A stretch of DNA of 64,000 bases, from assembly GCA_946539445.1 (NCBI GenBank), contig CAMNHK010000001.1, forward strand, positions 9,845 through 73,844, read 5' to 3'. The first letter of the stretch is position 1. The number at the start of each line of letters is the position of its first letter. The translations under genes were made by a program, and so were the position numbers. Under the pieces are notes generated by a model, which did no database searches, was not told where the DNA came from, and was given only the letters and a program-made list of their open reading frames with translations. Positions 613 to 18,141 of the stretch are shown piece by piece. The DNA comes from an uncultured Bacillales bacterium (lineage in GTDB: Bacteria; Bacillota_I; Bacilli_A; RF39; UBA660).

Positions 613-1384
613 TGGCGTAGTACTCTTCTAAAGTAATTTTTTGATGATAAAGATGATAAGCTAGTTTTAATCCTACGTACCGATAATGCCATGGTTCATA
701 TTGATATCCTGTAATATCTTCTTTTCCTTTTGGATATCGTTCGATAAAACCATATTCATAGGCATGTTCTTTGATCCACTCATATTCATTTGTTTTATGA
801 AAATTTTCATAAGATTCTATTCCATTCGAGATATCCAAGGCTAGCCCTGTTTGATGTTCAGAATAACCTGGCCTTGCGGAATAGGTATCGGCTTTTTCTA
901 TTCCTTCTAATTTTACATATTTTTTGTATAAATTATCTTGATATTCATAACTGCGATATGCGGATATAGCATATACTGATAATCCTTTCTTTTTCATTTC
1001 TTGTGCTAACTTTTCCCAGGCATTCTTAGCTTCTTTTGAGAGATATAATTCTCTTGTTGAATAGTTCTCATTTATCTTTTCTAGTGTGGGTGGAATATAG
1101 TCTTGTCCTAAATAAAAGTGTTTATTTACTAATACGCTTTTTTTTCCAATATTAGGGGATTTTTCTGTTCCTTCATAAGGTTTTTTATCTTGCTGTAAAT
1201 TTACGGCTTGGACTACTTGTTTTTTTGTTAATAATGGTTTCTTTTTTTTATATTGTTTGTATCTTTCTTTGTAAGAATCTTTATAGTATTTTGTTTTTAT
1301 AAAGGATTCTTTCGATAGTTCTTTATTACCTAAGACTAAAGCTATTAATATTACTTCCCATAGGAGTAGTTTTTGTATTTTCAT
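596..1384 (-). CDS. secreted D-alanyl-D-alanine carboxypeptidase, VanY / peptidase M15B family
   Basis: N-terminal signal peptide. Motifs SEHQTGLALD and EPWHYRYVG match the Zn-binding signatures of VanY-type DD-carboxypeptidases. Confidence 0.75.
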   Translation of the reverse strand: MKIQKLLLWEVILIALVLGNKELSKESFIKTKYYKDSYKERYKQYKKKKPLLTKKQVVQAVNLQQDKKPYEGTEKSPNIGKKSVLVNKHFYLGQDYIPPTLEKINENYSTRELYLSKEAKNAWEKLAQEMKKKGLSVYAISAYRSYEYQDNLYKKYVKLEGIEKADTYSARPGYSEHQTGLALDISNGIESYENFHKTNEYEWIKEHAYEYGFIERYPKGKEDITGYQYEPWHYRYVGLKLAYHLYHQKITLEEYYATKKGF

Positions 1385-1442
1385 GATATCTCCTTTTATG
1401 CATAGTTTCTTTTTTATAACATATGGTTTACTAGGAGGATTT

Positions 1443-2591
1443 ATGAAAAAAATAGTATGGTTTTTAATTGGAATTTTTTTCTTCTTTCCCTTTCATACTT
1501 GGGCAGAAGAACTAATTCCTAATGCTGATAGTGGAATTTTGATGGAAGTGAGTAGTGGTAAAATTCTTTATGAGAAAGATATTCATAAAAGAGTTTCGGT
1601 TGCTTCTATGACGAAAATGGTTGCTCAAATTCTTATTTTAGAGGAAATAGAAAAAGGAACGATTCATTGGAATGATATTGTAACGGTTAGTAGTAATGCC
1701 AGTGAAATGGGAGGTAGTCAAATTTACTTAGAAGCAGGCGAGAAAATGTCTGTAGAAGATTTGATGAAGGGAATTAGTGTTGCGAGTGGAAATGATGCTA
1801 CGGTTGCAATGGCAGAATATATTAGTGGTACGGAAGAAAAATTTGTAAAACGAATGAATCAAAAAGTGTTGGGTTTAGGATTAGCCGATACTCATTTTGA
1901 AAATTGTACGGGATTGGATCAAGAAAATCATTATTCTAGTAGTTATGATATGGCAATGATTGCCAGAGAACTAATGATCCATCATCCGGATATTTTAAAG
2001 TATTCTTCTATTTATGAAGATTATTTAAGACAAAATACCGATCATAAGTTTTGGCTCGTTAATACCAATAAATTGATTGCTCAATATGAGGGGTGTGATG
2101 GATTAAAAACGGGTCATACGGATGCTGCTGGGTATTGTTTAGCAGCTACTGCTAAAAGGGGTGATCTACGTTTTATTGCTATTGTGTTAGGAGAAAAAGA
2201 TAGCAAAGTAAGAAATCGAGAGACCGTTGGACTTTTGGATTATGGATTTACGAATACAAAGGTTCATGTTTTAAAGAAAAAGGGGGAAATTGTAGATACT
2301 ATTTCATTTTCTAAAGCTACTCCTAGTCAAGCCTCTTTTCTATTACAAGATAATCTTATTGCCGTAGAAGAAGTGGGAGAATCCTCTTCTTATCACTATA
2401 AACCAATCATTCGTTCTCTTTCCTTACCTATTCAAAAAGGATCGATTGTTGGAGAGATGATTGCTTATCGTGATCAAGAGGAAATTAGTAGAGTTCCAAT
2501 TGTTGTGGACCGGGATGTACAAAAGATGAGTTTTCTTTCTCTTTTTTGGCAAGAAATTAAAAATATTTTCCTAGGAATTTTTGCATTTTAG
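1443..2591 (+). CDS. serine-type D-Ala-D-Ala carboxypeptidase (PBP5/DacA-like, peptidase S11)
   Basis: GGAGGA RBS before ATG 1443 and a signal peptide. SxxK (SMTK), SxN (SGND) and KTG (KTGHT) motifs are in the correct order and spacing. Confidence 0.85.
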   Translation: MKKIVWFLIGIFFFFPFHTWAEELIPNADSGILMEVSSGKILYEKDIHKRVSVASMTKMVAQILILEEIEKGTIHWNDIVTVSSNASEMGGSQIYLEAGEKMSVEDLMKGISVASGNDATVAMAEYISGTEEKFVKRMNQKVLGLGLADTHFENCTGLDQENHYSSSYDMAMIARELMIHHPDILKYSSIYEDYLRQNTDHKFWLVNTNKLIAQYEGCDGLKTGHTDAAGYCLAATAKRGDLRFIAIVLGEKDSKVRNRETVGLLDYGFTNTKVHVLKKKGEIVDTISFSKATPSQASFLLQDNLIAVEEVGESSSYHYKPIIRSLSLPIQKGSIVGEMIAYRDQEEISRVPIVVDRDVQKMSFLSLFWQEIKNIFLGIFAF

Positions 2592-2648
2592 ACTTTTTTC
2601 TCTCTTGGTTCTTTGATATAATATTTTTGTATAATCGGAGGTTGTAGT

Positions 2649-3596
2649 ATGGCAAAGAATAATAGTAAACCTTACAATGATAAAAAAAATACCAAAAATA
2701 GCAAAAATTCTTCTAAGAAGAAGAATATTGAAAATACTACGAAAATTCGAATTGACCGTGAACGATTAAATGATTCAGAATCTTTGGACACTAGTTTCTT
2801 AGAGGGACGTTTTTCTAAGAAAGTTCCATCTAGTAAAGAAAAAAGAGATTTGCTGATAAGCGAAAAAAGTAAAAAAATTCAAAGAGTAGAACTTTTAAAA
2901 AAATTATTTTATTCTTTATCCATTTTTTGCATATTAGTTCTTGGAATTATGGCTTTTTTTGCAAACAATCCTATTACTCTTTTTCATAAGAAAGAACGGT
3001 TAGAGGAACCTATTGCGATTCAAAAAGCAGATGATACTCTTGATCGTAATTATTTATTTGTTGGTGATTATCATACGGATGAATTTGATTTTTCTCTTTA
3101 TCATTATGACTATCATTATGTAAAAGTGAGTAGTGATGATATGACGGCTTCTGTGGTATCAAATCAATTAAGAGATTTTATTTATCAATATAATCCATCC
3201 ATTGTTTTCTTGCAGTTAGGAATGAACGATTTACAAAAAGGAGAGTCTTTTGAAACAATTCTTAAATCTTTCCATAAAATTGTTGATGGGATTCAAGCAA
3301 ATCGTCCTTATGCCACGATTTATGTAGAATCTTTATATCCAATTAATCCTTCTAATCCATATTATAATGATGGTGTTTTTGGAGATTTGGATAATTCTGA
3401 TATTCAACAATTTAATGAGGAATTAAAGGAATTGTGTGAAGAACAAAAAATTGAATATTTGGATATCTTCCAAGAGTTAGTCGAAAATGGAGCATTGAAG
3501 GACTCTTATACGGATGATGGTATTTTATTAAATGATAATGGCTATCGTCGACTTGTGAAAGTTATTAATCGAGTGATTGAGGCTGTTGAGCAATAA
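2649..3596 (+). CDS. membrane-anchored SGNH/GDSL-like hydrolase with a Lys-rich N-terminal tail
   Basis: GGAGGT RBS. Lys/Ser-rich N-terminus, one TM helix, then an FVGDY....GMNDL....DDG(I)H-like SGNH arrangement. Confidence 0.55.
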   Translation: MAKNNSKPYNDKKNTKNSKNSSKKKNIENTTKIRIDRERLNDSESLDTSFLEGRFSKKVPSSKEKRDLLISEKSKKIQRVELLKKLFYSLSIFCILVLGIMAFFANNPITLFHKKERLEEPIAIQKADDTLDRNYLFVGDYHTDEFDFSLYHYDYHYVKVSSDDMTASVVSNQLRDFIYQYNPSIVFLQLGMNDLQKGESFETILKSFHKIVDGIQANRPYATIYVESLYPINPSNPYYNDGVFGDLDNSDIQQFNEELKELCEEQKIEYLDIFQELVENGALKDSYTDDGILLNDNGYRRLVKVINRVIEAVEQ

Positions 3597-3660
3597 AAAA
3601 GTATGTTTTAAACATATTTTTTTTATTGTTTCATACAATTATTATGAAAGTGAGGAAAAA

Positions 3661-3921
3661 ATGGAAACATTAAAAGTTAGTAGTAAATCAAATCCTAATA
3701 GTGTAGCAGGGGCGTTGGCAAATGTCTTTCGTGAAAAAGGTGTTGTGGAAATTCAAGCAGTTGGGGCTGGGGCTTTGAATCAAGCGATTAAAGCTGTTGC
3801 GATTGCGCGCGGTTTTGTTGCACCTAGTGGTAAAAACCTTGTTTGTATTCCAGCCTTTCAAGATATTTCCATTGATGGTGAGGAAAGAACTGCGATTAAA
3901 TTGTTGATAGAAGCAAAATAG
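3661..3921 (+). CDS. spoVS: stage V sporulation protein S
   Basis: The 86-aa product METLKVSSKSNPNSVAGALANV...AIARGFVAPSG...CIPAF.DI.IDGEERTAIKL is near-colinear with Bacillus SpoVS. GAGGAAAAA RBS. The start is internal to the longer listed ORF. Confidence 0.85.
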   Translation: METLKVSSKSNPNSVAGALANVFREKGVVEIQAVGAGALNQAIKAVAIARGFVAPSGKNLVCIPAFQDISIDGEERTAIKLLIEAK

Positions 3922-3988: not shown

Positions 3989-5170
3989 ATGAATGAGAAT
4001 GGTGGATATACGATATACTGTGCTCGTTGTGGTGAGGAAATGAACAGTAATTCACGGTATTGTATGAAATGTGGATATTTAAATCCAGAACATGAAGCAA
4101 ATCAATCCATGCAGCAATATATTAAAAATCAAACGAATACTTATTCCGTTGGAGGAGGATCTACTATTCCTCAAAATGAGATTACTCAACAATCTGCTAT
4201 CGGACTTGCTTATAATGCTGGAAATCGTGTTATTTGTTTTGTTACCAATTTACTCGTTTTTTTGGGTCTGAATTTTATTTTAGGTTTTTTAGCGTTTCAA
4301 ATGAACCCAACGGAGTTGAATACGATTGTTTATTCTTTTTATCCGATTACCTGTATGATTCTTTCTGTGGGTTTCCTATGGCATTATTCTTTACAATTAC
4401 TTTTTATGAAATGTAATCAAAGATGGTGGAAAGCTTGGATTCCTTTTTATAATTTTGTCGTTTTGGGAAATCTTGCTTTTCGTTCTAAGAGTATTGGATG
4501 GATTGCTTTGATTCCAGGTGTTGGTATTATTTTCTTATTAATTGTGTTTTATCGATTAGGAAAAGAATTTCAATATAATGGAATATTATGTTTATTATTA
4601 CCAATTGTTTTTATTCCACTGATTGGATATGGAACGCATTTTTATGGTAACAATCAATATGTTAGTTCTACTGATTCTAAAGTTGTGGAAAGAAACTATC
4701 GATTGCAAAAGATTTTATATCGTTTGTTCGTTGTATTTTTCTTAATAGGACTTGTATTATTTATTATCGCGAATATGACAAGTGTTAAGACTACTAGTCG
4801 TTATGTTCAAAATTATTATTATGTTTATGCTAGTAAAAAACTTGTAAAAGAAGTAGATAGTATGGTTTCGAATAATCAAGTTGTATGTAATAATCGAGAA
4901 TTTTCTCTAACTACTGGTATGTATTACTTTTATTTTGCAGATATCCGTGATGAAATATATTTGCCTCTTTATTATTTGAGAGAGCCTATATCTGCTTTTG
5001 TTATTGCGGATAGAAATGGAGAAGTTCCAAGATATTATGTCAGTATGACGGATGGCACTTATGGATTTGCTTCTACTCTTGTGGAAGAAATTACTTATAC
5101 AACACCAATAGAATATCCAAGTATTGGTATTGACCTTAATGCTCCTAATGTTTGTTATCTAAACAAATAA
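3989..5170 (+). CDS. membrane protein with N-terminal zinc-ribbon (CxxC...CxxC) and extracytoplasmic C-terminal domain
   Basis: CARCG...CMKCG zinc ribbon at the N-terminus, followed by about 5 TM helices and a 150-aa C-terminal domain. No family assignment possible. Confidence 0.45.
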   Translation: MNENGGYTIYCARCGEEMNSNSRYCMKCGYLNPEHEANQSMQQYIKNQTNTYSVGGGSTIPQNEITQQSAIGLAYNAGNRVICFVTNLLVFLGLNFILGFLAFQMNPTELNTIVYSFYPITCMILSVGFLWHYSLQLLFMKCNQRWWKAWIPFYNFVVLGNLAFRSKSIGWIALIPGVGIIFLLIVFYRLGKEFQYNGILCLLLPIVFIPLIGYGTHFYGNNQYVSSTDSKVVERNYRLQKILYRLFVVFFLIGLVLFIIANMTSVKTTSRYVQNYYYVYASKKLVKEVDSMVSNNQVVCNNREFSLTTGMYYFYFADIRDEIYLPLYYLREPISAFVIADRNGEVPRYYVSMTDGTYGFASTLVEEITYTTPIEYPSIGIDLNAPNVCYLNK

Positions 5171-5843: not shown

Positions 5844-7126
5844 TCGATATAAAATACATTCGAGAAAACAAAGATTTAGTGAAAGAAAATATTAAGAAAA
5901 AATTTCAAGATGAAAAACTTCCATTAGTAGATGAAGTATATGAACTTGATAAAAAAGTACGTGAAGTACAAGTAAAAGCTGATACTTTAAAAGCTGATAA
6001 GAATAAATTAAGTGGTGAAATTGGAAAATTAATGAAGGATGGTAAGAAGGACGAAGCAGAAGAAATCAAGAAAAAAATTGCTGAAACAGCTGAAGAAATT
6101 ACCAAATTAGAAGGGGAACAAGAAGAATTATCAAAATCTATCCGTGAAAAAATGATGGTTATTCCACAAATTATTGATGAATCTGTACCTATTGGTAAAG
6201 ATGATAGCGAAAATGTGGAAGTTCAAAGATTTGGAGATCCTGTAGTTCCTAGTTATGAAATTCCTTATCATGCAGATATTATTGAGAGATTAAATGGTAT
6301 GGATAAAGATGCTGCTGGTAGAACTTCTGGACAAGGATTTTATTACTTACTTGGAGATATAGCCCGTTTACATGAGGCTATGATTGCTTATGGTAGAGAT
6401 TATATGATTGACCAAGGATTTACTTATGCGATTCCACCATTTATGATTCATAGTGATGTAGTTACGGGAGTTATGTCATTCCCTGAAATGGAAGCTATGA
6501 TGTATAAAATAGAAGGGGAAGATTTATACTTAATCGGAACTTCTGAACATAGTATGATTGGTAAGTTTAAAGATCAAATTATTAAAAAAGAAGAATTGCC
6601 AATTCATATGACAAGTTATTCTCCATGTTTTAGAAAAGAAGGAGGAAGTCATGGCTTGGAAGAAAGAGGACTATATCGTGTTCATCAATTTGAAAAGCAA
6701 GAAATGATTGTTGTATGTGAACCAGAAGAATCTATGGATTGGTATAATAAGATGTGGCAATTTACGGTTAATATTTTCCGTAATATGGATATTCCTGTTC
6801 GTCAATTAGAGTGTTGTAGTGGAGATTTAGCAGATTTGAAAGTTAAATCTTGTGATATTGAAGCGTGGTCTCCTCGTCAACAAAAGTATTTTGAAGTGGC
6901 TTCTTGTAGTAATTTAGGAGATGCTCAAGCTAGACGTTTGGGAATTCGTTGTAAGGGAGAAAAGGGTACATATTATTTACATACTTTAAATAATACAGTT
7001 GTTGCTACTCCTCGTGGATTAATTGCTTTAATTGAAAATAATTATCAAGAAGATGGAAGTATTAAAATACCAAAAGTTTTACAACCATATATGGGTGGTA
7101 AAGAAGTTATTACTCCAAAGAAATAA
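5840..7126 (+). CDS. serS: seryl-tRNA synthetase
   Basis: 428 aa. N-terminal coiled-coil tRNA-binding arm and class II aaRS core motifs. Length and architecture are typical of SerRS. Confidence 0.9.
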   Translation: MIDIKYIRENKDLVKENIKKKFQDEKLPLVDEVYELDKKVREVQVKADTLKADKNKLSGEIGKLMKDGKKDEAEEIKKKIAETAEEITKLEGEQEELSKSIREKMMVIPQIIDESVPIGKDDSENVEVQRFGDPVVPSYEIPYHADIIERLNGMDKDAAGRTSGQGFYYLLGDIARLHEAMIAYGRDYMIDQGFTYAIPPFMIHSDVVTGVMSFPEMEAMMYKIEGEDLYLIGTSEHSMIGKFKDQIIKKEELPIHMTSYSPCFRKEGGSHGLEERGLYRVHQFEKQEMIVVCEPEESMDWYNKMWQFTVNIFRNMDIPVRQLECCSGDLADLKVKSCDIEAWSPRQQKYFEVASCSNLGDAQARRLGIRCKGEKGTYYLHTLNNTVVATPRGLIALIENNYQEDGSIKIPKVLQPYMGGKEVITPKK

Positions 7127-7130
7127 AAGA

Positions 7131-7160
7131 AAAAGAATATCGTTTGATATTCTTTTTTTA
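7131..7160. terminator. bidirectional terminator between serS and the convergent pilin-like gene
   Basis: AAGAATATC-GTTTG-ATATTCTT hairpin flanked by an A-run and a T-run. Confidence 0.6.
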
Positions 7161-9596
7161 TTAGAAGTAACGTAATTTGGAATTGCATTGACGATAGGTT
7201 CCGCCATTACAAGAGGTGTAGTCATAACCTGTCCAATTGCTCCAATCTGAGTACGTTTCGCATCCACAATCACTAGAACGATTATAGTAACTACAGGATC
7301 TAGTTCGACAGTTGTAAGCATAGAATCCACTTTCTGCTCCGGCACAATCCGCTAATCCGTCATAGCATTCTCCATATGGAGCGGAAGTATAAGTATTGGT
7401 ACAATTCCATCCAGACCATCCAGAGTAACTTGCACATCCAGCTGATGCACATCTTGCCCAAGTATTACAAGATCTGGTTCTTGTTCGATAGTAGGTTACA
7501 GGAGAAACGGTTAGAGAACAACTTCCTGGATTTCCTAGAATGTCATATACTGTGAAAGAAGTACTACTTTTTTGATTCGTGAAGGAAGATACATTATTGT
7601 TTCTGCAACCACTGTAAGTATCGGAACAAGAAATGGTTCCACTGACTCCATCAAAGCCTCCTGTATTAGTTTTTGTTGGGGTGCAAGAAGGCCCTGTTCG
7701 GTCTAACATAATCGTTATATTATCGTTGTAGGTTCCACAGTTTCCAGCAGCATCACAAGCACGATATTGGATGTAAGAGTATCCTTCGGCTTCTATATTA
7801 CGATAATTTCCTTGAACATCACTTTCATTGGTGGTTCTTCCAGTAGTGGTATATCGATAATAAATTCCTTTGGAAATATCATCGGTTGAATCGCTAGCTG
7901 TTGTAAATACTTTTCCAGATAACCAAGTGCCTGGCGTATAAGCGGTAAGTCCGGCATACGATGTTGGCCTTGTGTTATTGTTGTGCCATCTATAGGAATA
8001 TGTATTTGGTGTTGTTGGAGCAGTTCTATCGATGTCTGCTTGAATGAAGAAAATCGTCTCATTTCCAGCCTTATCTTTTACGGTTAGTTTTCCAGCTCTC
8101 ATTCCTTCTCCTACTAGCGAGATGTATACCGTTTCTTTTCTTTTTCCACAGTTTGTGGTGGATAAATCGGGAGCCGTAAAGAATGTTTCGGCAATTCCAT
8201 CGGGATTGGTAGCTTTATAAGTAGAATAACTTCCAGAACCTCGATTATTAATACCGGCTTTGTTTGTTTCCCACTTCCAACTATATAAGTGAAGGTCGTC
8301 GGTGAAGGTAATTTTATAGATTACTCCATACGGATAATTATCTTTATTCATCCAATTGTTAATTAAATTTTTATATTTTGTATACTGAAGTGTAGACGTT
8401 TCTGTTGATTGAGTGGTAGCTCCATTTAAGATCGAGTTACCATCTATTTCTCCAGAAGAATTTCTCTTATATCCAACTAATTCTATTTTTGGTCTTTCTA
8501 AATCGACATTGATTCGTACTCGGCAAGTATCATTTGTAAATACTAATTCACATGGATCGGTTGTTACATAGGAATTTGCAACATTTGTATTTCCTGCATT
8601 ATCTTTTACTTGAATATAAGCATATTCGGCTGATTTCTGATCATTATTTGGCCATGTTCTAGTAAACTTATCACGAATACATCCACTTCCATCTCCATCG
8701 GAACAAGTAGCTGTTAACTTACGATATTTGGTATTACTATAGACATTGACCCAATCATTTTCATTTTTTGCTTGATTGGAAATATCTACACAGTATGGTG
8801 GAGTCGTATCTTGATATTTGGCACTTCCAGATGAGTCTATGCTCGATATTTTTTCATCTAATACTCCGCCTTTAACGTTTCTTACGGTTGCTTTTACAGT
8901 GATGTAGGAAGCTTGTGTGACATCTATATAATCTTTTAGGGCTTTTTCTATTTTTATTTCTGTTTTGCCATTTCCACTTAATGTTCCCGAATTAAAAACT
9001 TCTTTTACTTCGTTGGAATTTTCATTACTAGTGGAGATTGAATAGTGATATCCATCAATTGCGATAGGAGTATCATCCCTATCTTTTCCACCTGTAAAGT
9101 TTATAATAATTTTAGCTTCTGATACGTTTTCAAAGACATGTTCGTTTTCTTCTCCAGAAGCATCTGTAAATAAGATTTGAATGGTTGGAATAGGAGCTTC
9201 TTCTTCAGTCGGAACTTCCTCATCTCCACAATATATGTGTGCTGTATAAATGTATTGATCCTTTGACTGTTTATAAACCGTGGTGTAGGATTTTTCCATG
9301 CAAGATTTACCATCTGCTTTTATATCTTCTTTTAAATAATTATTGTTTCTTAATACTGTAATTGGAATGGTGGTTGTTTCTCCAATTGCTTTTGGCATTT
9401 CACTTTTATGAGATTGCATATAACTTTCCGTAGCCATTTCTACTGTCTTTTCTTGTTCTGCCTTTTGAGTGTCTTTGCCTTTTTGAATGATTCTTGAAAT
9501 GGACATAATCGTTACAACTGATAAGATTCCTAGAATTGTTATTGCGGCTAATAATTCAATTAATGTGAATCCTTTTTTGTTATATAATTGTTTCAT
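7161..9596 (-). CDS. giant type IV prepilin-like protein (class III signal peptide) with Cys-rich C-terminal region
   Basis: N-terminus MKQLYNKKG/FTLIELLAAITILGILSVV is a canonical prepilin cleavage/methylation motif. 811 aa. The last 200 or so residues are extremely rich in Cys, Tyr, Ser, Gly, Asn and Thr. Confidence 0.7.
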   Translation of the reverse strand: MKQLYNKKGFTLIELLAAITILGILSVVTIMSISRIIQKGKDTQKAEQEKTVEMATESYMQSHKSEMPKAIGETTTIPITVLRNNNYLKEDIKADGKSCMEKSYTTVYKQSKDQYIYTAHIYCGDEEVPTEEEAPIPTIQILFTDASGEENEHVFENVSEAKIIINFTGGKDRDDTPIAIDGYHYSISTSNENSNEVKEVFNSGTLSGNGKTEIKIEKALKDYIDVTQASYITVKATVRNVKGGVLDEKISSIDSSGSAKYQDTTPPYCVDISNQAKNENDWVNVYSNTKYRKLTATCSDGDGSGCIRDKFTRTWPNNDQKSAEYAYIQVKDNAGNTNVANSYVTTDPCELVFTNDTCRVRINVDLERPKIELVGYKRNSSGEIDGNSILNGATTQSTETSTLQYTKYKNLINNWMNKDNYPYGVIYKITFTDDLHLYSWKWETNKAGINNRGSGSYSTYKATNPDGIAETFFTAPDLSTTNCGKRKETVYISLVGEGMRAGKLTVKDKAGNETIFFIQADIDRTAPTTPNTYSYRWHNNNTRPTSYAGLTAYTPGTWLSGKVFTTASDSTDDISKGIYYRYTTTGRTTNESDVQGNYRNIEAEGYSYIQYRACDAAGNCGTYNDNITIMLDRTGPSCTPTKTNTGGFDGVSGTISCSDTYSGCRNNNVSSFTNQKSSTSFTVYDILGNPGSCSLTVSPVTYYRTRTRSCNTWARCASAGCASYSGWSGWNCTNTYTSAPYGECYDGLADCAGAESGFYAYNCRTRSCSYYNRSSDCGCETYSDWSNWTGYDYTSCNGGTYRQCNSKLRYF

Positions 9597-9731
9597 CCTA
9601 TCACCTTATCTTAATTTTATATGAAATTCTAGTTTTTCTCAATAGAAAGTAGTGTCTAATGGGTGCTTTTTGATGGAAAAAATGAAACTATTTTTTGGTT
9701 GTATGATAAAATAAAATTAGGATGTGATTCT

Positions 9732-10430
9732 ATGCCTTTTTTAATAGGAGTTATTCTTTTAATCCTATTTGTTCTAATTCTATATTTTTATTTTAGAGTT
9801 CGAATTCAGAAGTTTTTAAGACAATTTGGTTTGTCTGCTCAAAATATCGGAGATATTATTGAAGAGGCAAGATTGGAAGATCAAGAACTTCCTAAGTCTC
9901 TTTCTAGTATGGATCGCATTTTTGAAAAACAAGTTCTTACGGATTTCCCAGATATGAATATTCAGGAATTAAAGAAAAAGTCCGAAAAAGAAATCCTTGA
10001 TTTTTTTCAAGCTATTGAAAGAGGAGACAGTTCTTCTTTATCTGGAAAAATTAAAAGTGCTGCTGAGAGTATGATAATGGATTTTCAAGGTAAGAATATT
10101 TCTTTTCAACAATTTCGATTCCATAATACGGTTTTATCGAATTATCATAAGAATAAGAATATTGCGACTCTTTCGTTTTCTTCCGCTTTTGAATACTATC
10201 AAAATGAGAATGGTCATTCTGTGAAATGTCAAGATCGAGCTAGAGTAGAGTATATTTATGTAATTGATGAGACGGCTATTGCTGATTCAGTTAAGGCTAT
10301 TGGAATTCATTGCCCTAATTGTGGTAGTCCTATAAAAACATTAGGAGAAAAGCATTGTAGTTATTGTGGAAGTGCAATTTTAGAAGTTGTTGGTAGAGTT
10401 TTTGTTTGTAATGATATTGTGAGATATTAA
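9732..10430 (+). CDS. membrane protein with C-terminal zinc ribbon (YdjG-like)
   Basis: Start at MPFLIGVILLILF with an upstream TAGGATGTGAT motif. N-terminal TM helix and C-terminal CPNCGS...CSYCGS ribbon. Confidence 0.5.
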   Translation: MPFLIGVILLILFVLILYFYFRVRIQKFLRQFGLSAQNIGDIIEEARLEDQELPKSLSSMDRIFEKQVLTDFPDMNIQELKKKSEKEILDFFQAIERGDSSSLSGKIKSAAESMIMDFQGKNISFQQFRFHNTVLSNYHKNKNIATLSFSSAFEYYQNENGHSVKCQDRARVEYIYVIDETAIADSVKAIGIHCPNCGSPIKTLGEKHCSYCGSAILEVVGRVFVCNDIVRY

Positions 10431-10465
10431 GGGATTTGTTATAATAAATGATAGGATGTGATAAT

Positions 10466-11368
10466 ATGTATCAAGATTCAGAAGATAATGGAATGAATTA
10501 TGGAATTGCTGCGCGAAGATTTCATTGCCGAGATTGTAATGCTAGTTTTATTTCATTAGGGTCTAAGACTATTGAGTATTGCTGTGTATGCCATAGTAAT
10601 AATATAGAGACTAAGAATGATGTATATGAAAAGAAACCTTATATTGTTCCTTTTCGTAAAACATTAGAAGATGCTAAAAATGATTATCAAAAGAAAGTTT
10701 TATTTCATCCATTAGTTCCATTTGTATTTAAATCAAAAGCAACAATTGAGGCAATCCAAAAGGTGTATTTACCGGTTATTGTTGTGGATGCTAATTTGCA
10801 AGGAACGGTTGATTTTTTAGCAGGAGATAAGACCAAAATTATGAAAGAAAAGGTTGCCTTTATTGAAACAAAAAAATATAGTGTTTTGGCCGATGTTAAT
10901 CTTAATTATCATCATATTATTTTGAATATGACTTCTAAATTACAAGATCGATTATTTCATACTATTTGTGATTATCAATTTGATCAACTATTAGAATATA
11001 ATCCAAATGCCTTAGGAGATAGTGCTATTTTGGTAGATGATAAAGATTTGAATGCAGTTGCTGATCTTGGAAGACAAAGGATTATGAAACATGCTATGGC
11101 GGTTATCAAATCTAATATTAATCATGAATTAAAGAAAGTGAATAACAATGGTGCTTTGTTAAATTTTGTCAATTCAAAAGAAGTATTAGTTCCTGTTTAT
11201 TTATTAACGGTTCATTATAAAGATAAAGATTATATTTATTTGATGAATGGAGAAAATGGGGCTGTTTCTTTAGAATTAGTATTTGGTAAAATTGAAATTA
11301 TTTTATTTAGTTTATTAATGTTTGGTCTTATCTTTTTAATCGCATTTTTAATTGCATATTTCTTATAG
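10466..11368 (+). CDS. zinc-ribbon protein with C-terminal TM anchor
   Basis: CRDCNAS...CCVCHS ribbon near the N-terminus. C-terminal hydrophobic helix ILFSLLMFGLIFLIAFLIAYFL. The same TAGGATGTGAT motif precedes the ATG. Confidence 0.5.
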   Translation: MYQDSEDNGMNYGIAARRFHCRDCNASFISLGSKTIEYCCVCHSNNIETKNDVYEKKPYIVPFRKTLEDAKNDYQKKVLFHPLVPFVFKSKATIEAIQKVYLPVIVVDANLQGTVDFLAGDKTKIMKEKVAFIETKKYSVLADVNLNYHHIILNMTSKLQDRLFHTICDYQFDQLLEYNPNALGDSAILVDDKDLNAVADLGRQRIMKHAMAVIKSNINHELKKVNNNGALLNFVNSKEVLVPVYLLTVHYKDKDYIYLMNGENGAVSLELVFGKIEIILFSLLMFGLIFLIAFLIAYFL

Positions 11369-11377
11369 GAGGTTATT

Positions 11378-12196
11378 GTGAAAAAAGGTTTATTCTATTT
11401 ATTGATTTTTACTAGTTTTTTCTTATTTTATCCTACTACTTATGCTAGTACCGTTACTTATCCAAGAACAGAGGAGGACTTTTTAGTTCCAGCAGATGTT
11501 CAAGTTACAGAAAGTAATAAGATGGATATTTTAAATACTCCTGCTGTTAATGCTAGTGAGAAATTATATGATTTTGCGGAATTGTTTTCTGATTCTGAAG
11601 AGGGAGATTTAATTCGTAAGATTCAGGAGTATAGTGTATTATCTAGATATGATTTAGCAATTGTTACTACCAATAATTTAAATGGTTTTGTAATAGGGGA
11701 TTATACGAATAATTTTTATGACTATAATGATTTTCAAAATGAAGGTATTATTTTAGTTATTTATATTGGTGGATTGGATCCTCAAATATATATGGGAACT
11801 AGTGCTTTACCTACAAGTGAGTTACAAAAGATTTATTCTGATGCTAGAATTCATCAAACTTTGGCTTATATTTATAAAGATATAAAAGATGCAAAGTATT
11901 ATAATGCGGTTGATAATTATATAAAAATTGTAAAAGGCTTCTTTGAATTGGATAATGATAAACAGTATGTTGTAGATGGAAATGGAAATTTGGTAAAACA
12001 AATTCCATGGATTGAAATTGTTATTTTAGCATCTACTTTATCTTTTATCATTGTTATTTTGTTAATCAATCGTTTGAAAAAGTATAATGTTGTTCAATAC
12101 TCTGATAATATTGAAACGAAATTAGATCCTACTTCTATTCGTGTTTCTATTACGAAAGATGAACAAGTGGATCGAGTTTTGTCAAAAGCAAAATAG
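11378..12196 (+). CDS. TPM-domain (DUF477-like) membrane protein
   Basis: Signal peptide. LYDFAELFSD.E...L...I.....Y.L.IVTTNNLNG resembles the TPM phosphatase-like fold signature. C-terminal TM helix. Confidence 0.55.
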   Translation: MKKGLFYLLIFTSFFLFYPTTYASTVTYPRTEEDFLVPADVQVTESNKMDILNTPAVNASEKLYDFAELFSDSEEGDLIRKIQEYSVLSRYDLAIVTTNNLNGFVIGDYTNNFYDYNDFQNEGIILVIYIGGLDPQIYMGTSALPTSELQKIYSDARIHQTLAYIYKDIKDAKYYNAVDNYIKIVKGFFELDNDKQYVVDGNGNLVKQIPWIEIVILASTLSFIIVILLINRLKKYNVVQYSDNIETKLDPTSIRVSITKDEQVDRVLSKAK

Positions 12197-12261
12197 TACT
12201 TTTCAAAAAAGTTATATTATTGTATAATAAAATTAATTAAATATTAGATAGGAGAGTTTTT

Positions 12262-13401
12262 ATGGGTTTAATTAAAGCTGCTGTAGGTGCTGTTAGTAGT
12301 ACACTACACGATCAATGGAAAGAGTATATTCGTTGCGAAGACCTTGGAAATGATATATTAATGAAAAGAGTTTCTACTCCAAATGGTATTATTTCTAAGG
12401 ATAGTGCTATTCAAGTTGCCCCAGGACAAATTGCTATTATTTTTGAAAATGGTAAAATCCTAGATGCTACTGCTGAAGAAGGAATCTATACTTTTGATCA
12501 ATCATCTTCACCATCATTCTTTGCTGGACAATTTGGAGATGTATTTAAAGAAATGTGGACTCGTTTCACATATAACGGTGGTGTTAATAAGGAACAAGCT
12601 GTATTCTATATTAACGCTAAAGAGATTATGGATAATAAATTTGGAACACCTGCTCCAATTCCATTCCAAGATTGGTCTCATCCAATTCCAAATCAAATGA
12701 CTGGATCTATGAGTCCATTAAGAGTAGAAGTAAAATGTTTTGGTAAATATACATTTATGATTAGCGATCCTGCATTATTTATGAGTAGAATTGCTGGAAC
12801 TGCTACTGAATATAGAAAAGAAGATATTACAGAACAAATGAGATCTGAAGTTATTGGTGCTTTCCAAAATGTGTTAAATGAATTAGGCAATAGTGCTCAT
12901 AAAGTTCCAGTATTGGAATTACCAAGTGCTACGGATGAAATTAAGAAAACAATGGATGAAAAAGTATTCGATCAACCAATTCGTGATCGTGGAATTAGCT
13001 TAGTAGGTTTCGTTGTTGAATCTGTAACATTAGATGATGAATCTAATAAGAAAATTGATAATTATGAACTTTCTTCTAACAGTTTCATGCAACAAGGAAC
13101 TCTTGTTGGTTCTTATGGAAAAGCTATCCAAGATGCTGCAAACAATCCTAATGGAGCTGCTGCTGGCATGATTGGAGTAGGAATGATGAATATGGCAAGC
13201 GGAGGAATGATTGGAGGAGCTGCTCAAGGAGCCTTCCAAAATCAAGGTACAACGGCTGCTGTTGATCCATTTAATAATGGAGTTGCTGCTGCACCTGCTC
13301 AAGGAGCTGCACAACCAGCTGAAGGAGGATTCTGCCCTAACTGTGGAACTCCTGCAAATGGAGCAAATTTCTGTTCTAAATGTGGAACTAAATTAAAATA
13401 A
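12262..13401 (+). CDS. SPFH/band-7 domain protein, YdjI-like, with Gly/Ala-rich linker and C-terminal zinc ribbon
   Basis: N-terminus MGLIKAAVGAVSSTLHDQWKEYIRC matches the conserved start of the Bacillus YdjI family. C-terminal CPNCGT...CSKCGT. Confidence 0.65.
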   Translation: MGLIKAAVGAVSSTLHDQWKEYIRCEDLGNDILMKRVSTPNGIISKDSAIQVAPGQIAIIFENGKILDATAEEGIYTFDQSSSPSFFAGQFGDVFKEMWTRFTYNGGVNKEQAVFYINAKEIMDNKFGTPAPIPFQDWSHPIPNQMTGSMSPLRVEVKCFGKYTFMISDPALFMSRIAGTATEYRKEDITEQMRSEVIGAFQNVLNELGNSAHKVPVLELPSATDEIKKTMDEKVFDQPIRDRGISLVGFVVESVTLDDESNKKIDNYELSSNSFMQQGTLVGSYGKAIQDAANNPNGAAAGMIGVGMMNMASGGMIGGAAQGAFQNQGTTAAVDPFNNGVAAAPAQGAAQPAEGGFCPNCGTPANGANFCSKCGTKLK

Positions 13402-13407
13402 GAATAA

Positions 13408-13439
13408 AAAGCTATCAACGAAAGTTGATAGTTTTTTTG
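13408..13439 (+). terminator. rho-independent terminator
   Basis: GCTATCAAC-GAAA-GTTGATAGT hairpin plus T7. Confidence 0.7.
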
Positions 13440-13610
13440 TATAATTATATTCTTTTTTTCCATACTATTATTAGTGTAAAGGTCCATATATAAGTTCTTT
13501 ATTTCTTCTTTTTATTTTTTTTAAAAAAAGTATTGATTATCTTTTTATTTCTTTGTTTTTCAACAAAATATGAAGGATAAGAATTTTTTATAACTCCTTT
13601 TTTTAGCAGT

Positions 13611-13639
13611 TTGACACTAATTTTATCTTTTGTTAGAAT
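13611..13639 (+). promoter_or_regulatory. sigma-A-type promoter (TTGACA-17-TAGAAT)
   Basis: Consensus -35 and near-consensus -10 with 17-nt spacing, about 35 nt upstream of the ankyrin gene. Confidence 0.5.
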
Positions 13640-13671
13640 AGAAAACTGTCATGGACAAAGAGGTGTTTGAT

Positions 13672-14358
13672 ATGACAAATCAAGAATTACAAGTATATCA
13701 ATCTTGTAAGGAAGAACCATCGTTGATTTTTAGTATTATTAAGCAAGGGGCTTATGATGTTGCTTTTGACTTGATTAATAATAATATTGTTAATGTTAAT
13801 ACAGTAGATGGTGTTGGTAATGATGTCGTTATGCGTTTTTTGAAAGCTAGACAATATGATTATGTAATTGATTTGATGAAAAAAAGAAATTGGAATGTAA
13901 ACCATATGAATCAAGAGGGAAATACCTTTGGACATATTCTAGCTCAAGATAACTCTGTAATGGCTGTTAAAGTTGTTGAACAATTAACTAAAAAGAAAAA
14001 TTATATTCCCAATTTAAAAAACCATAAAGGTGAGACTGCAATGGATATTGCTCTTTCAAATCATTATTTATGTACTGCTTTTAAATTGTTGGAAGATGAG
14101 CGTTTTAATAATATTGATGTATTTTCTTTTAAAAACTTGTTTGATGTTAGTATTAAAAATAAAGTATATGGAAAATATTCTAAGATTACGAATTTGGAAA
14201 TTATTGTAGAGAATTTGGAAAAGAAAGAATTGAATTCTGGAATGAAAGATTTAGTGGATCATATTTCCGATAATATGGATGCCATTAAAAAAGATATTAT
14301 GAATAATCGTTCTACTGTTTTGGAATCTATTATTCATTATTATATGGTTACGGAATAG
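13672..14358 (+). CDS. ankyrin-repeat protein
   Basis: GAGGTG RBS. At least four 33-residue units with the ankyrin G-TPLH-like pattern (GNDVVMRFL, GNTFGHILA, GETAMDIAL). Confidence 0.55.
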   Translation: MTNQELQVYQSCKEEPSLIFSIIKQGAYDVAFDLINNNIVNVNTVDGVGNDVVMRFLKARQYDYVIDLMKKRNWNVNHMNQEGNTFGHILAQDNSVMAVKVVEQLTKKKNYIPNLKNHKGETAMDIALSNHYLCTAFKLLEDERFNNIDVFSFKNLFDVSIKNKVYGKYSKITNLEIIVENLEKKELNSGMKDLVDHISDNMDAIKKDIMNNRSTVLESIIHYYMVTE

Positions 14359-16897: not shown

Positions 16898-17521
16898 CTA
16901 GTATTTTTTTATTAATTCTATTATTTCGTTGGCTGTTTTGTTGATGAAGTCTTCTACGGCTGTTATATCAAGAGTATATGTTTTTTCTGATTTGGAATTT
17001 TCAATTAATATTCCCATTTTGTTTAAAAGAATATCTAGACTTTCAACGGGAACTTCTTTTATATTTGTTTTTGGAATTACAAATTCTTCATAAAATAGTG
17101 ATAATTCCAAATCATATTTTTCAATAATACGGATATTTAAATTTGTGTAATCCGAATAAAGCATATTACGCATTTCTTCTGGAGTTGTTTGAATAATTGT
17201 TCCATCTAGTAGTTTTATAGAATTGTTTGCGGTTATATTTGGCATAAATTCTTCGAACCACTTTTTATCGGCATATAGATGAGTAAAGTAACCTAAATCA
17301 AAAGAATTATATTTGAAAAAAGGATATCTTTTTATAAACAAGTTAATATTTGGAACATCCTCTAAGGTATTGATTAAGAAATGAGATTCTTCTTTACTTC
17401 TACCAATTTGTTTGGATATATCTGGCGCAATAGCTCCTAAATAATAGTCTTTTATGTTGTCGACTGCCATTCTTTCTTTTACTTTTTTTGCTATTGCTAA
17501 ATGAATGATTGTTGAAGCCAT
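16898..17521 (-). CDS. hypothetical protein (possible Zn-dependent phospholipase-C-like fold)
   Basis: Starts with an H....A.....LG.IAPD pattern. The assignment is weak. Confidence 0.3.
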   Translation of the reverse strand: MASTIIHLAIAKKVKERMAVDNIKDYYLGAIAPDISKQIGRSKEESHFLINTLEDVPNINLFIKRYPFFKYNSFDLGYFTHLYADKKWFEEFMPNITANNSIKLLDGTIIQTTPEEMRNMLYSDYTNLNIRIIEKYDLELSLFYEEFVIPKTNIKEVPVESLDILLNKMGILIENSKSEKTYTLDITAVEDFINKTANEIIELIKKY

Positions 17522-17625
17522 ATATGATTCCTCCTATTATTTTTATTATATCATTAAATTTTAATATTTGTTTTTTTTTAGTACTTTTTTTCTTCCTTTT
17601 ACATATATTACAATGGGAGGCAGTT

Positions 17626-18141
17626 ATGGCTAATTATCGTGAAATTGTTACAAAAGCTATTGTATCGAAAGGAAAGAAACTTTTTACTTCGGAAAATAGT
17701 GTTGTAGTAGAGAATCCATCTACTATATTAGGATGTTGGATTATTAATCATAATTTCCATGGAGTTAAAAAAGGGAATGATATTCAAATAGAAGGAAATT
17801 ACGATGTTAATATTTGGTATTCTTATGATAATGATTCTAAGACCAATGTCGTGAAGGAAGTAGATCATTACCAAGAGATTGTTCACATGCGTGATGTAGA
17901 AGGAGTTAGTGGAGAAGAAATTATGGTTCGTAGTTTGAAACAGCCAAATTGTGTAAAGGCGGAAATTCAAGGAAATACGATTCATTACGTAGTGGAAAAA
18001 GAATTAGGAATTGAACTATTAGGAGACGTGAAAGTGAAAGTAGAAACGGCAGAAGAAGATCCTTGGGATGATATTGCAGAAGAAAAAAGTCAGGGACCAG
18101 ATGATACGATTCGAGAAAACTTTATTGAAGAAACGATTTAA
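17626..18141 (+). CDS. cotE: spore coat morphogenetic protein CotE
   Basis: MANYREIVTKAIVSKGKK...ILGCWIINH...YDVNIWYSYDNDSKTNVV and an acidic C-terminal tail align closely with Bacillus CotE. GGGAGG RBS before ATG 17626. Confidence 0.8.
   Translation: MANYREIVTKAIVSKGKKLFTSENSVVVENPSTILGCWIINHNFHGVKKGNDIQIEGNYDVNIWYSYDNDSKTNVVKEVDHYQEIVHMRDVEGVSGEEIMVRSLKQPNCVKAEIQGNTIHYVVEKELGIELLGDVKVKVETAEEDPWDDIAEEKSQGPDDTIRENFIEETI

Follow-up and report, generated by a model that had tools for sequence, protein, structure and literature searches.

What does a module of YdjG-, YdjH-, and YdjI-type proteins do at a locus that lacks the gene for PspA? The sole experimental model of these three proteins, from Bacillus subtilis, casts them as machinery for attaching PspA to the membrane, and there the genes form the pspA-ydjG-ydjH-ydjI locus of the sigma-W regulon (PMC8581546, PMC9239133, PMC11237479). 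We addressed this question for a 64-kb stretch of DNA from an uncultured Bacillales bacterium (contig CAMNHK010000001.1; referred to as the window here), in which four plus-strand open reading frames (ORFs), named g1 to g4 and listed by window position in Table 1, encode a module of this kind without a neighboring PspA gene. By analogy with B. subtilis, our analysis leans, with modest confidence, toward a reading in which the operon encodes a YdjI-type SPFH membrane scaffold together with its membrane adaptors, and in which PspA would not be obligatory.

The identity of the module rests on g2, g3, and g4. The g4 protein matches the Pfam family Band_7_1 (PF13421), to which B. subtilis YdjI also belongs, with 73.9 bits versus a cutoff of 24 (E = 1.9e-20), and BLASTP aligned it with YdjI from end to end, linker and ribbon included, at 25% identity (E = 1e-18). 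Its C terminus is a CPNCG...CSKCG zinc ribbon, preceded by a low-complexity linker rich in Gly, Ala, and Met, and the ribbons of the two proteins align with each other (FCPNCGT...NFC..CG.KL). Like YdjI, which is soluble in B. subtilis (PMC8581546), g4 is predicted to contain no transmembrane (TM) segment, with a maximum 19-residue Kyte-Doolittle mean of 1.24 (threshold, 1.6). The MG[LF]I[KR]A...DQW.E N terminus of g4 (positions 12262 to 12300) is nearly invariant across 47 diverse members of the SPFH family, with M1 and G2 being invariant, and might be a membrane-binding or oligomerization element. A preliminary description of this DNA had likened the MGLIKA start to that of Bacillus YdjI, but B. 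subtilis YdjI starts with MSFFRNQL (primer sequence, PMC8581546) and lacks these residues, residue 13 of g4 aligning to its residue 2; MGLIKA is instead typical of the wider family.

The family of g2 (16 sequences) aligned with YdjG (sequence identical to UniProt YDJG_BACSU, “PspA localization factor YdjG”) over 262 columns (hhalign, 99.8%, E = 9.8e-29). YdjG has two N-terminal zinc ribbons (PMC11237479), whereas g2 carries a single CxxC...CxxC pair and lacks the first ribbon of YdjG, since the alignment begins at the second one. The missing ribbon is the source of the PF08271 match of YdjG, and no Pfam ribbon match was obtained for g2. At its other end, g2 is hydrophobic over residues ∼265 to 300, where the AlphaFold2 model (mc648c68fc387; mean predicted local distance difference test [pLDDT], 84.8; predicted template modeling score, 0.76) places a helix at the extreme C terminus (residues 275 to 299). 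The cytoplasmic domain is beta-rich, with a conserved ...LVPVY...MNGENG motif and, in the model, very long beta-hairpins with strands of ∼25 to 30 residues. Foldseek found no meaningful fold match for this model in the PDB (probabilities of ≤0.14), which suggests that the fold of YdjG has yet to be characterized structurally. The g3 protein contains a TPM domain (PF04536, 54.6 bits versus a cutoff of 22.1, E = 1.4e-14), within which it shares 27% identity with B. subtilis YdjH (BLASTP, E = 1e-10). It starts with a signal peptide read off the sequence (MKKGLFYLLIFTSFFLFYPTTYAS) and has a TM helix at residues 208 to 234, placing the TPM domain outside the cytoplasm. Its cytoplasmic tail of 38 amino acids (RLKKYNVVQYSD...SKAK) is short, not glycine-rich, and does not align with that of YdjH, which continues after the TM helix with a low-complexity or coiled-coil segment (PMC11237479), a feature absent from g3.

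Since g2, g3, and g4 each match their Bacillus partner, the YdjG/H/I-like identity proposed in the preliminary description is correct: g2 is a true homolog of YdjG, g3 is one of YdjH, and g4 is one of YdjI. The gene products listed there also hold up, namely, two zinc-ribbon membrane proteins (g1 and g2, each with a TM helix and a ribbon), a TPM-domain protein, and an SPFH protein with a C-terminal ribbon, encoded by four co-directional genes that were all read out as ORFs. The order quoted there for Bacillus is the one seen at the B. subtilis locus, where pspA (PF04012), ydjG (PF08271), ydjH (PF04536), and ydjI (PF13421 plus ribbon) follow one another. The window thus shares with B. subtilis the G-H-I order and the published architecture “ZnR(s)+TM -> SIG+TPM+TM -> Band-7+ZnR” (PMC11237479), with a low-complexity region between the Band-7 domain and the ribbon. 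It differs in the single ribbon of g2, the short tail of g3, the additional conserved N terminus of g4, the presence of a fourth gene, g1, and the lack of pspA.

The ribbons raise the idea that g1 to g4 could form a regulatory module, in which nucleic-acid-binding ribbons would make up a membrane-tethered regulator of transcription or translation rather than a scaffold. This idea draws on YdjG, whose TF_Zn_Ribbon domain “is known to bind DNA” (PMC9239133) and whose NCBI name is “TFIIB-type zinc ribbon-containing protein.” However, the PF08271-bearing ribbon is precisely the one missing from g2, and neither a helix-turn-helix nor any other DNA-binding domain was found in g1 to g4 with Pfam or NCBIfam, the latter yielding nothing informative for any of the four. 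Short CPxCG ribbons are, moreover, commonly protein-protein or structural modules. We consider a regulatory module very unlikely.

To look for PspA, we ran phmmer with the PspA proteins of Escherichia coli and B. subtilis as seeds (E ≤ 10) against the stop-to-stop ORFs of the window, of 84 loci of the same clade (±8 kb), and of 10 contexts from outside the clade. No PspA-like ORF was found in any of them. This absence is real for the neighborhoods searched, since the same search recovered B. subtilis pspA from the E. coli seed (E = 3.7e-17), and it bears out the earlier remark that no PspA gene stands beside the module, either upstream or anywhere in the window. What did not survive is the implication that this state is unusual. 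An alignment-based genome search had returned close relatives only (73 to 83% identity), and the wider diversity was therefore sampled by 10 single look-ups, giving 10 independent contexts of SPFH members (30 to 53% identity, plus two records annotated as “plasmid”). Four of the 10 contexts contained a YdjG-like partner, with or without a TPM protein (Enterococcus gallinarum, L094, L095, and L097), four contained a partner with a Tim44-like domain and a ribbon (L088, L090, L092, and L093), two contained neither (L089 and L099), and none contained PspA. PspA-less triads exist elsewhere as well. One is found in E. gallinarum, where members of the three families lie side by side (WP_005472382/WP_003127086/WP_003127085) under no annotation beyond SPFH, hypothetical, and TPM protein; this triad differs from the window in its I-G-H order, in a YdjG-like protein that keeps two ribbons, and in having no Tim44-like g1 gene. 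A gut metagenome contig (L097) carries an SPFH-ZnR_TF-TPM triad after prfB. In L095/L096 (positions 1227 to 3824), a single-ribbon YdjG-like protein of 318 amino acids and a 109-amino-acid protein with a signal peptide and a TM segment but without TPM precede the SPFH gene, which may be a minimal version of G-H-I. A PspA-less neighborhood is hence the usual situation in this SPFH subfamily rather than an anomaly.

These data have to be weighed against the possibility that the module plays the classical Psp role with unlinked genes, i.e., that g2 and g3 act as receptor and g4 as adaptor for an ESCRT-III protein of the PspA/LiaH type whose gene lies outside this region of the genome. The window has a homolog of each of the three B. 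subtilis partners, YdjI is needed for PspA foci in B. subtilis, and even in that organism a terminator lies between pspA and the ydj genes (PMC8581546). On the other hand, linkage would be expected of an obligate partner and is not conserved, as PspA is absent from all searched neighborhoods, and g4 is conserved at a housekeeping level even in genomes where it has no adjacent partner (see below). We therefore regard the classical role as doubtful, though it deserves more weight than the other alternatives considered here. The scaffold reading also has support from B. subtilis genetics: the loss of YdjG/H causes stress-dependent shape defects that are not seen upon loss of PspA or YdjI (PMC8581546), so that roles independent of PspA are already indicated for these proteins.

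To gain an idea about the conservation of the module within the clade, we collected relatives of g4 from species-representative genomes, where at least 418 stretches contain one, and focused on the best 80. These are metagenome-assembled genomes (MAGs) labeled Bacilli, Erysipelotrichaceae, “Tenericutes/Mollicutes,” or Candidatus Faecimonas, and the exact contig of the window recurs in gut metagenomes. Across these 80 species genomes, the order serS-(g1)-g2-g3-g4-ankyrin-like gene-miaB is conserved and g4 retains 73 to 83% identity; since a single chromosomal position is kept, the module is part of the ancestral core genome rather than an island. Partners were counted in the 57 genomes with a complete serS-to-g4 interval, where g4 was always present (57/57), together with g2 and g3 in 29, with g1, g2, and g3 in 23, with g1 alone in 2, and without an adjacent partner in 3. 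The median identity to the window was 78% for g4, close to that of MiaB (79%) and below that of SerRS (87%), whereas it dropped to 49% for g1, 36% for g3, and 29% for g2. Together, the presence of g4 in all 57 genomes and these identities mark the SPFH protein as an invariant core under strong constraint, about as conserved as MiaB. The anchors g1 to g3 are variable and fast evolving, and probably in part dispensable or interchangeable.

The same observations bear on whether the locus could be a mobile antiphage or abortive-infection module with an SPFH protein and zinc-ribbon sensors. Some defense systems do contain SPFH proteins and ribbons, and the ankyrin-like gene downstream of g4 gave a weak PADLOC match to PDC-M72A (E = 1.9e-6). 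However, PADLOC returned no match for g1 to g4, and PHROGs returned a single weak one, for g3 (phrog_13605, of unknown function, E = 0.0072). The site between serS and miaB is fixed in 80 species, the constraint on g4 is at the housekeeping level, the GC content of the module is like that of its flanks (∼30% across the whole window), and the ORF list showed neither an integrase nor repeats. Given the lack of PADLOC matches, the one weak PHROGs match, and the fixed core-genome location, a defense or phage origin is disfavored, and we find it hardly credible.

The fourth gene, g1, adds a component that is not part of the B. subtilis operon. Its product has an N-terminal TM helix, a C-terminal CPNCG...CSYCG ribbon, and a conserved VF.CNDIVRY tail at the very C terminus; its family comprises ∼207 clusters, in which the ribbon is the only Pfam domain. 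In the preliminary description, the module was said to carry a duplicated ribbon protein, but a profile comparison of the g1 and g2 families aligned only the 39-column ribbon, and we rejected g1 as a paralog or duplicate of g2; it is a different protein. The AlphaFold2 model of g1 (mean pLDDT, 74.5; core, 80 to 93) shows three further helices besides the TM helix, along with three long strands in antiparallel arrangement. The link to Tim44 comes from context L093, where the protein encoded upstream of an SPFH gene (44% identical SPFH) is a homolog of g1 (hhalign, 99.9%, E = 5.5e-37) and matches Pfam Tim44 with an E value of 7.7e-6 and 26.5 bits, under the cutoff of 29.6. In addition, Monoglobus pectinilyticus encodes a Tim44-like-ribbon protein, annotated by NCBI as “TIM44-like domain-containing protein,” directly upstream of a Band_7_1 SPFH gene (WP_320691497/WP_320691496), a bioreactor contig shows the same pairing of a Tim44-domain-plus-ribbon protein with a Band_7_1 SPFH gene, and both Tim44-domain proteins have the same CPNCG...C.YCG ribbon near their C terminus as g1. 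In L092, a 765-amino-acid protein with two Tim44-like-ribbon units precedes the SPFH gene. The g1-g4 pairing follows the pattern of these Clostridia dyads, in which the Tim44-like-ribbon gene lies immediately upstream of the SPFH gene and its product combines a TM segment, an NTF2/Tim44-like domain, the ribbon, and a short conserved tail; unlike them, the window combines the g1-g4 dyad with a YdjG/YdjH pair, and the domain of g1 is too diverged to match PF04280 itself. With moderate confidence, we take g1 to be a divergent protein of the TM-Tim44-like-ribbon type, representing a second recurrent class of SPFH partners, and, equally moderately, that a divergent cytoplasmic Tim44/NTF2-like domain spans residues ∼57 to 177 of its predicted structure. 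Among the papers covered by a full-text search, none joined Tim44-like domains with bacterial SPFH proteins, and this recurrent adaptor class is apparently undescribed. The g1 proteins thus form an unannotated family worth domain curation.

How such a module might work can be sketched by analogy with B. subtilis, where YdjI forms membrane foci that need YdjG and YdjH, where YdjH interacts with both YdjI and PspA, and where deletion of ydjI alters membrane fluidity, its loss rigidifying the membrane (PMC8581546). In the same way, g1, g2, and g3 would recruit or tether g4 at the inner face of the membrane. In the predicted topology, g2 is a tail-anchored cytoplasmic protein, g3 exposes its TPM domain outside and a short tail inside, and g1 is anchored by its N terminus with the Tim44-like domain in the cytoplasm. 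Once recruited, g4 would oligomerize, the resulting scaffold would modulate membrane fluidity and processes tied to the envelope, and the ribbons found on all cytoplasmic components (g1, g2, and g4) would likely be docking elements. The SPFH protein would then be the functional core, served by interchangeable adaptors that may be YdjG/YdjH, Tim44-like-ribbon proteins, or, in the case of the window, both kinds at once, and PspA would be an optional client linked to the module in the Bacillus lineage. A comparable logic is found in the flotillin/stomatin-NfeD operons (B. subtilis floT-yuaF and floA-yqeZ; E. coli qmcA-ybbJ), which also co-encode an SPFH scaffold and a small membrane partner and whose scaffolds have roles in membrane fluidity and organization (PMC8581546). 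In contrast to g4, which is soluble, of the Band_7_1 type, ribbon bearing, and paired with ribbon-bearing anchors, the SPFH proteins of these operons carry their own TM helix or hairpin as an anchor and have NfeD as their partner.

Several observations weigh against this scheme. The docking role of the ribbons, its least supported step, is pure inference. A PspA gene may lie in another part of the genome, our search having reached over 64 kb here and ±8 kb at the other loci, and the outside sample is small and nonrandom, with several contigs of 1.5 to 4.5 kb. The Tim44 assignment of g1 is transitive and subthreshold: g1 itself had no Pfam match at E ≤ 0.1, including Tim44 (PF04280), its best Foldseek matches in the PDB (mL45, which is Tim44-like, the NTF2-like domains of ARC6/PARC6, and human Tim44) are weak (E ≥ 1.6e-3), and its ribbon and tail are of low confidence in the model. 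Along the same lines, the g1 profile matched PDB sequences over the ribbon only, namely, those of ribosomal ribbon proteins, and single-sequence hhalign comparisons of g1 with Tim44-like proteins were confident over the ribbon alone, a relaxed alignment being collinear but of low confidence. As for expression, a consensus scan found no plus-strand sigma-70-like promoter in the 135 nucleotides (nt) upstream of g1, and a pattern search of the sequence preceding the module, covering the window and 74 relatives, did not find the sigW-type motif TGAAAC-N15-18-CGT[AC]; unlike in B. subtilis, there is consequently no sequence evidence for extracytoplasmic function-type stress control.

Even with these points taken into account, the SPFH core is constrained like MiaB, linkage to PspA is the exception among the sampled contexts, and Tim44-like-ribbon adaptors recur as a second class beside SPFH genes in distant Firmicutes, which together suggest that the primary function of the module is PspA-independent membrane organization. 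A broader version of this idea, which we put forward only tentatively, is that Band_7_1-plus-ribbon SPFH proteins are autonomous and widespread scaffolds with interchangeable ribbon-bearing receptors, that PspA is a Bacillus-specific client, and that the scaffold is a near-essential housekeeping function that operates free of ESCRT-III in this order. The new elements are modest, consisting of g1 with its adaptor class, the single-ribbon YdjG variant, and the housekeeping-level conservation of the SPFH protein in uncultured gut Bacilli.

The four genes of the module span positions 9732 to 13401, with intergenic gaps of 35, 9, and 65 nt, and each is preceded by an AGGA/GGAG ribosome-binding site at the expected distance. 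Owing to this tight spacing, to the terminator hairpin followed by U7 directly downstream of g4, and to a promoter-like site before the next gene, g1 to g4 are predicted to be a discrete transcription unit. In RNA folding, the terminator hairpin had a free energy of −15.5 kcal/mol (z = −8.0), and 0 of 200 shuffled sequences folded as well; the scan also called this hairpin on the minus strand. The promoter of the operon presumably lies within the divergent intergenic region, a placement that we infer only. Rfam gave no match within positions 9300 to 13900. The preliminary description had let the module begin at position 9718, which is not a start codon; the ATG at 9732, with an AGGA ribosome-binding site ∼10 nt upstream, agrees with the N termini of homologs, although some gene callers chose the GTG at 9663.

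Table 1. Positions of the module and of other features in the 64-kb window
Feature	Positions	Strand	Description
g1	9732-10430	+	232 aa (amino acids); TM anchor, predicted Tim44/NTF2-like domain, zinc ribbon, conserved tail
g2	10466-11368	+	300 aa; YdjG homolog, single N-terminal ribbon, C-terminal TM tail anchor
g3	11378-12196	+	272 aa; YdjH-like, signal peptide, TPM domain, one TM helix
g4	12262-13401	+	379 aa; YdjI-type soluble SPFH protein, Band_7_1, linker, C-terminal zinc ribbon
Divergent intergenic region	9597-9731	.	135 nt; pilin-like gene (minus) on one side, g1 on the other
Intrinsic terminator	13406-13440	+	hairpin then U7, directly 3' of g4
Promoter-like site	13611-13639		11/12 match, before the next gene downstream
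Ankyrin-like gene	13651-14358		∼230 aa; ankyrin-repeat-like protein, weak Ank_2 match
Pilin-like gene	7161-9596	-	811 aa; prepilin-type N-terminal methylation motif (PF07963/TIGR02532)
Ribbon membrane protein gene	3989-5170		N-terminal zinc ribbon, five predicted TM helices (DUF5684), ∼120-aa C-terminal domain
SpoVS homolog	3577-3921		sporulation protein
CotE homolog	17509-18141		sporulation protein

On its upstream side, the module is separated from serS by the gene of the pilin-like protein, which has a long C-terminal region rich in Cys, Thr, and Ser. Only the closest relatives have this insertion; most of the 80 genomes lack the gene at that site. In many relatives (L023, L042, L082, and others), the first module gene begins only ∼50 to 100 nt after serS, so that the module may be cotranscribed with serS there, while the insertion separates the two in the window (positions 7126 to 9732). 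On the downstream side, the ankyrin-like gene has its own strong promoter and follows g4 in conserved synteny in almost every related genome (median identity, 59%). Among the contexts outside the clade, L099/L100 (positions 6001 to 9271) contains a more distant Band_7_1 SPFH gene that stands alone, flanked by a Mur ligase gene and by MatE/MurJ-like and amidase_3 genes, a cell wall context that recalls the peptidoglycan synthesis phenotype of B. subtilis ydjG/H mutants.

The clustering of zinc ribbons pointed out previously is also real, as 7 of the 61 nonoverlapping ORFs of the window contain a CxxC...CxxC four-cysteine motif and three of these seven (g1, g2, and g4) lie inside the operon. The count of four proteins combining a ribbon with a TM segment has to be lowered to three, since it holds for the genes at 3989, 9732, and 10466 but not for g4 at 12262, which has no TM segment; the first of these, a five-helix membrane protein, is unrelated to the operon. 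Finally, the window encodes homologs of the sporulation proteins SpoVS and CotE, which suggests that this lineage, whose MAGs are often labeled Tenericutes/Mollicutes or Erysipelotrichaceae, is a spore-forming, or formerly spore-forming, group of gut Bacilli.

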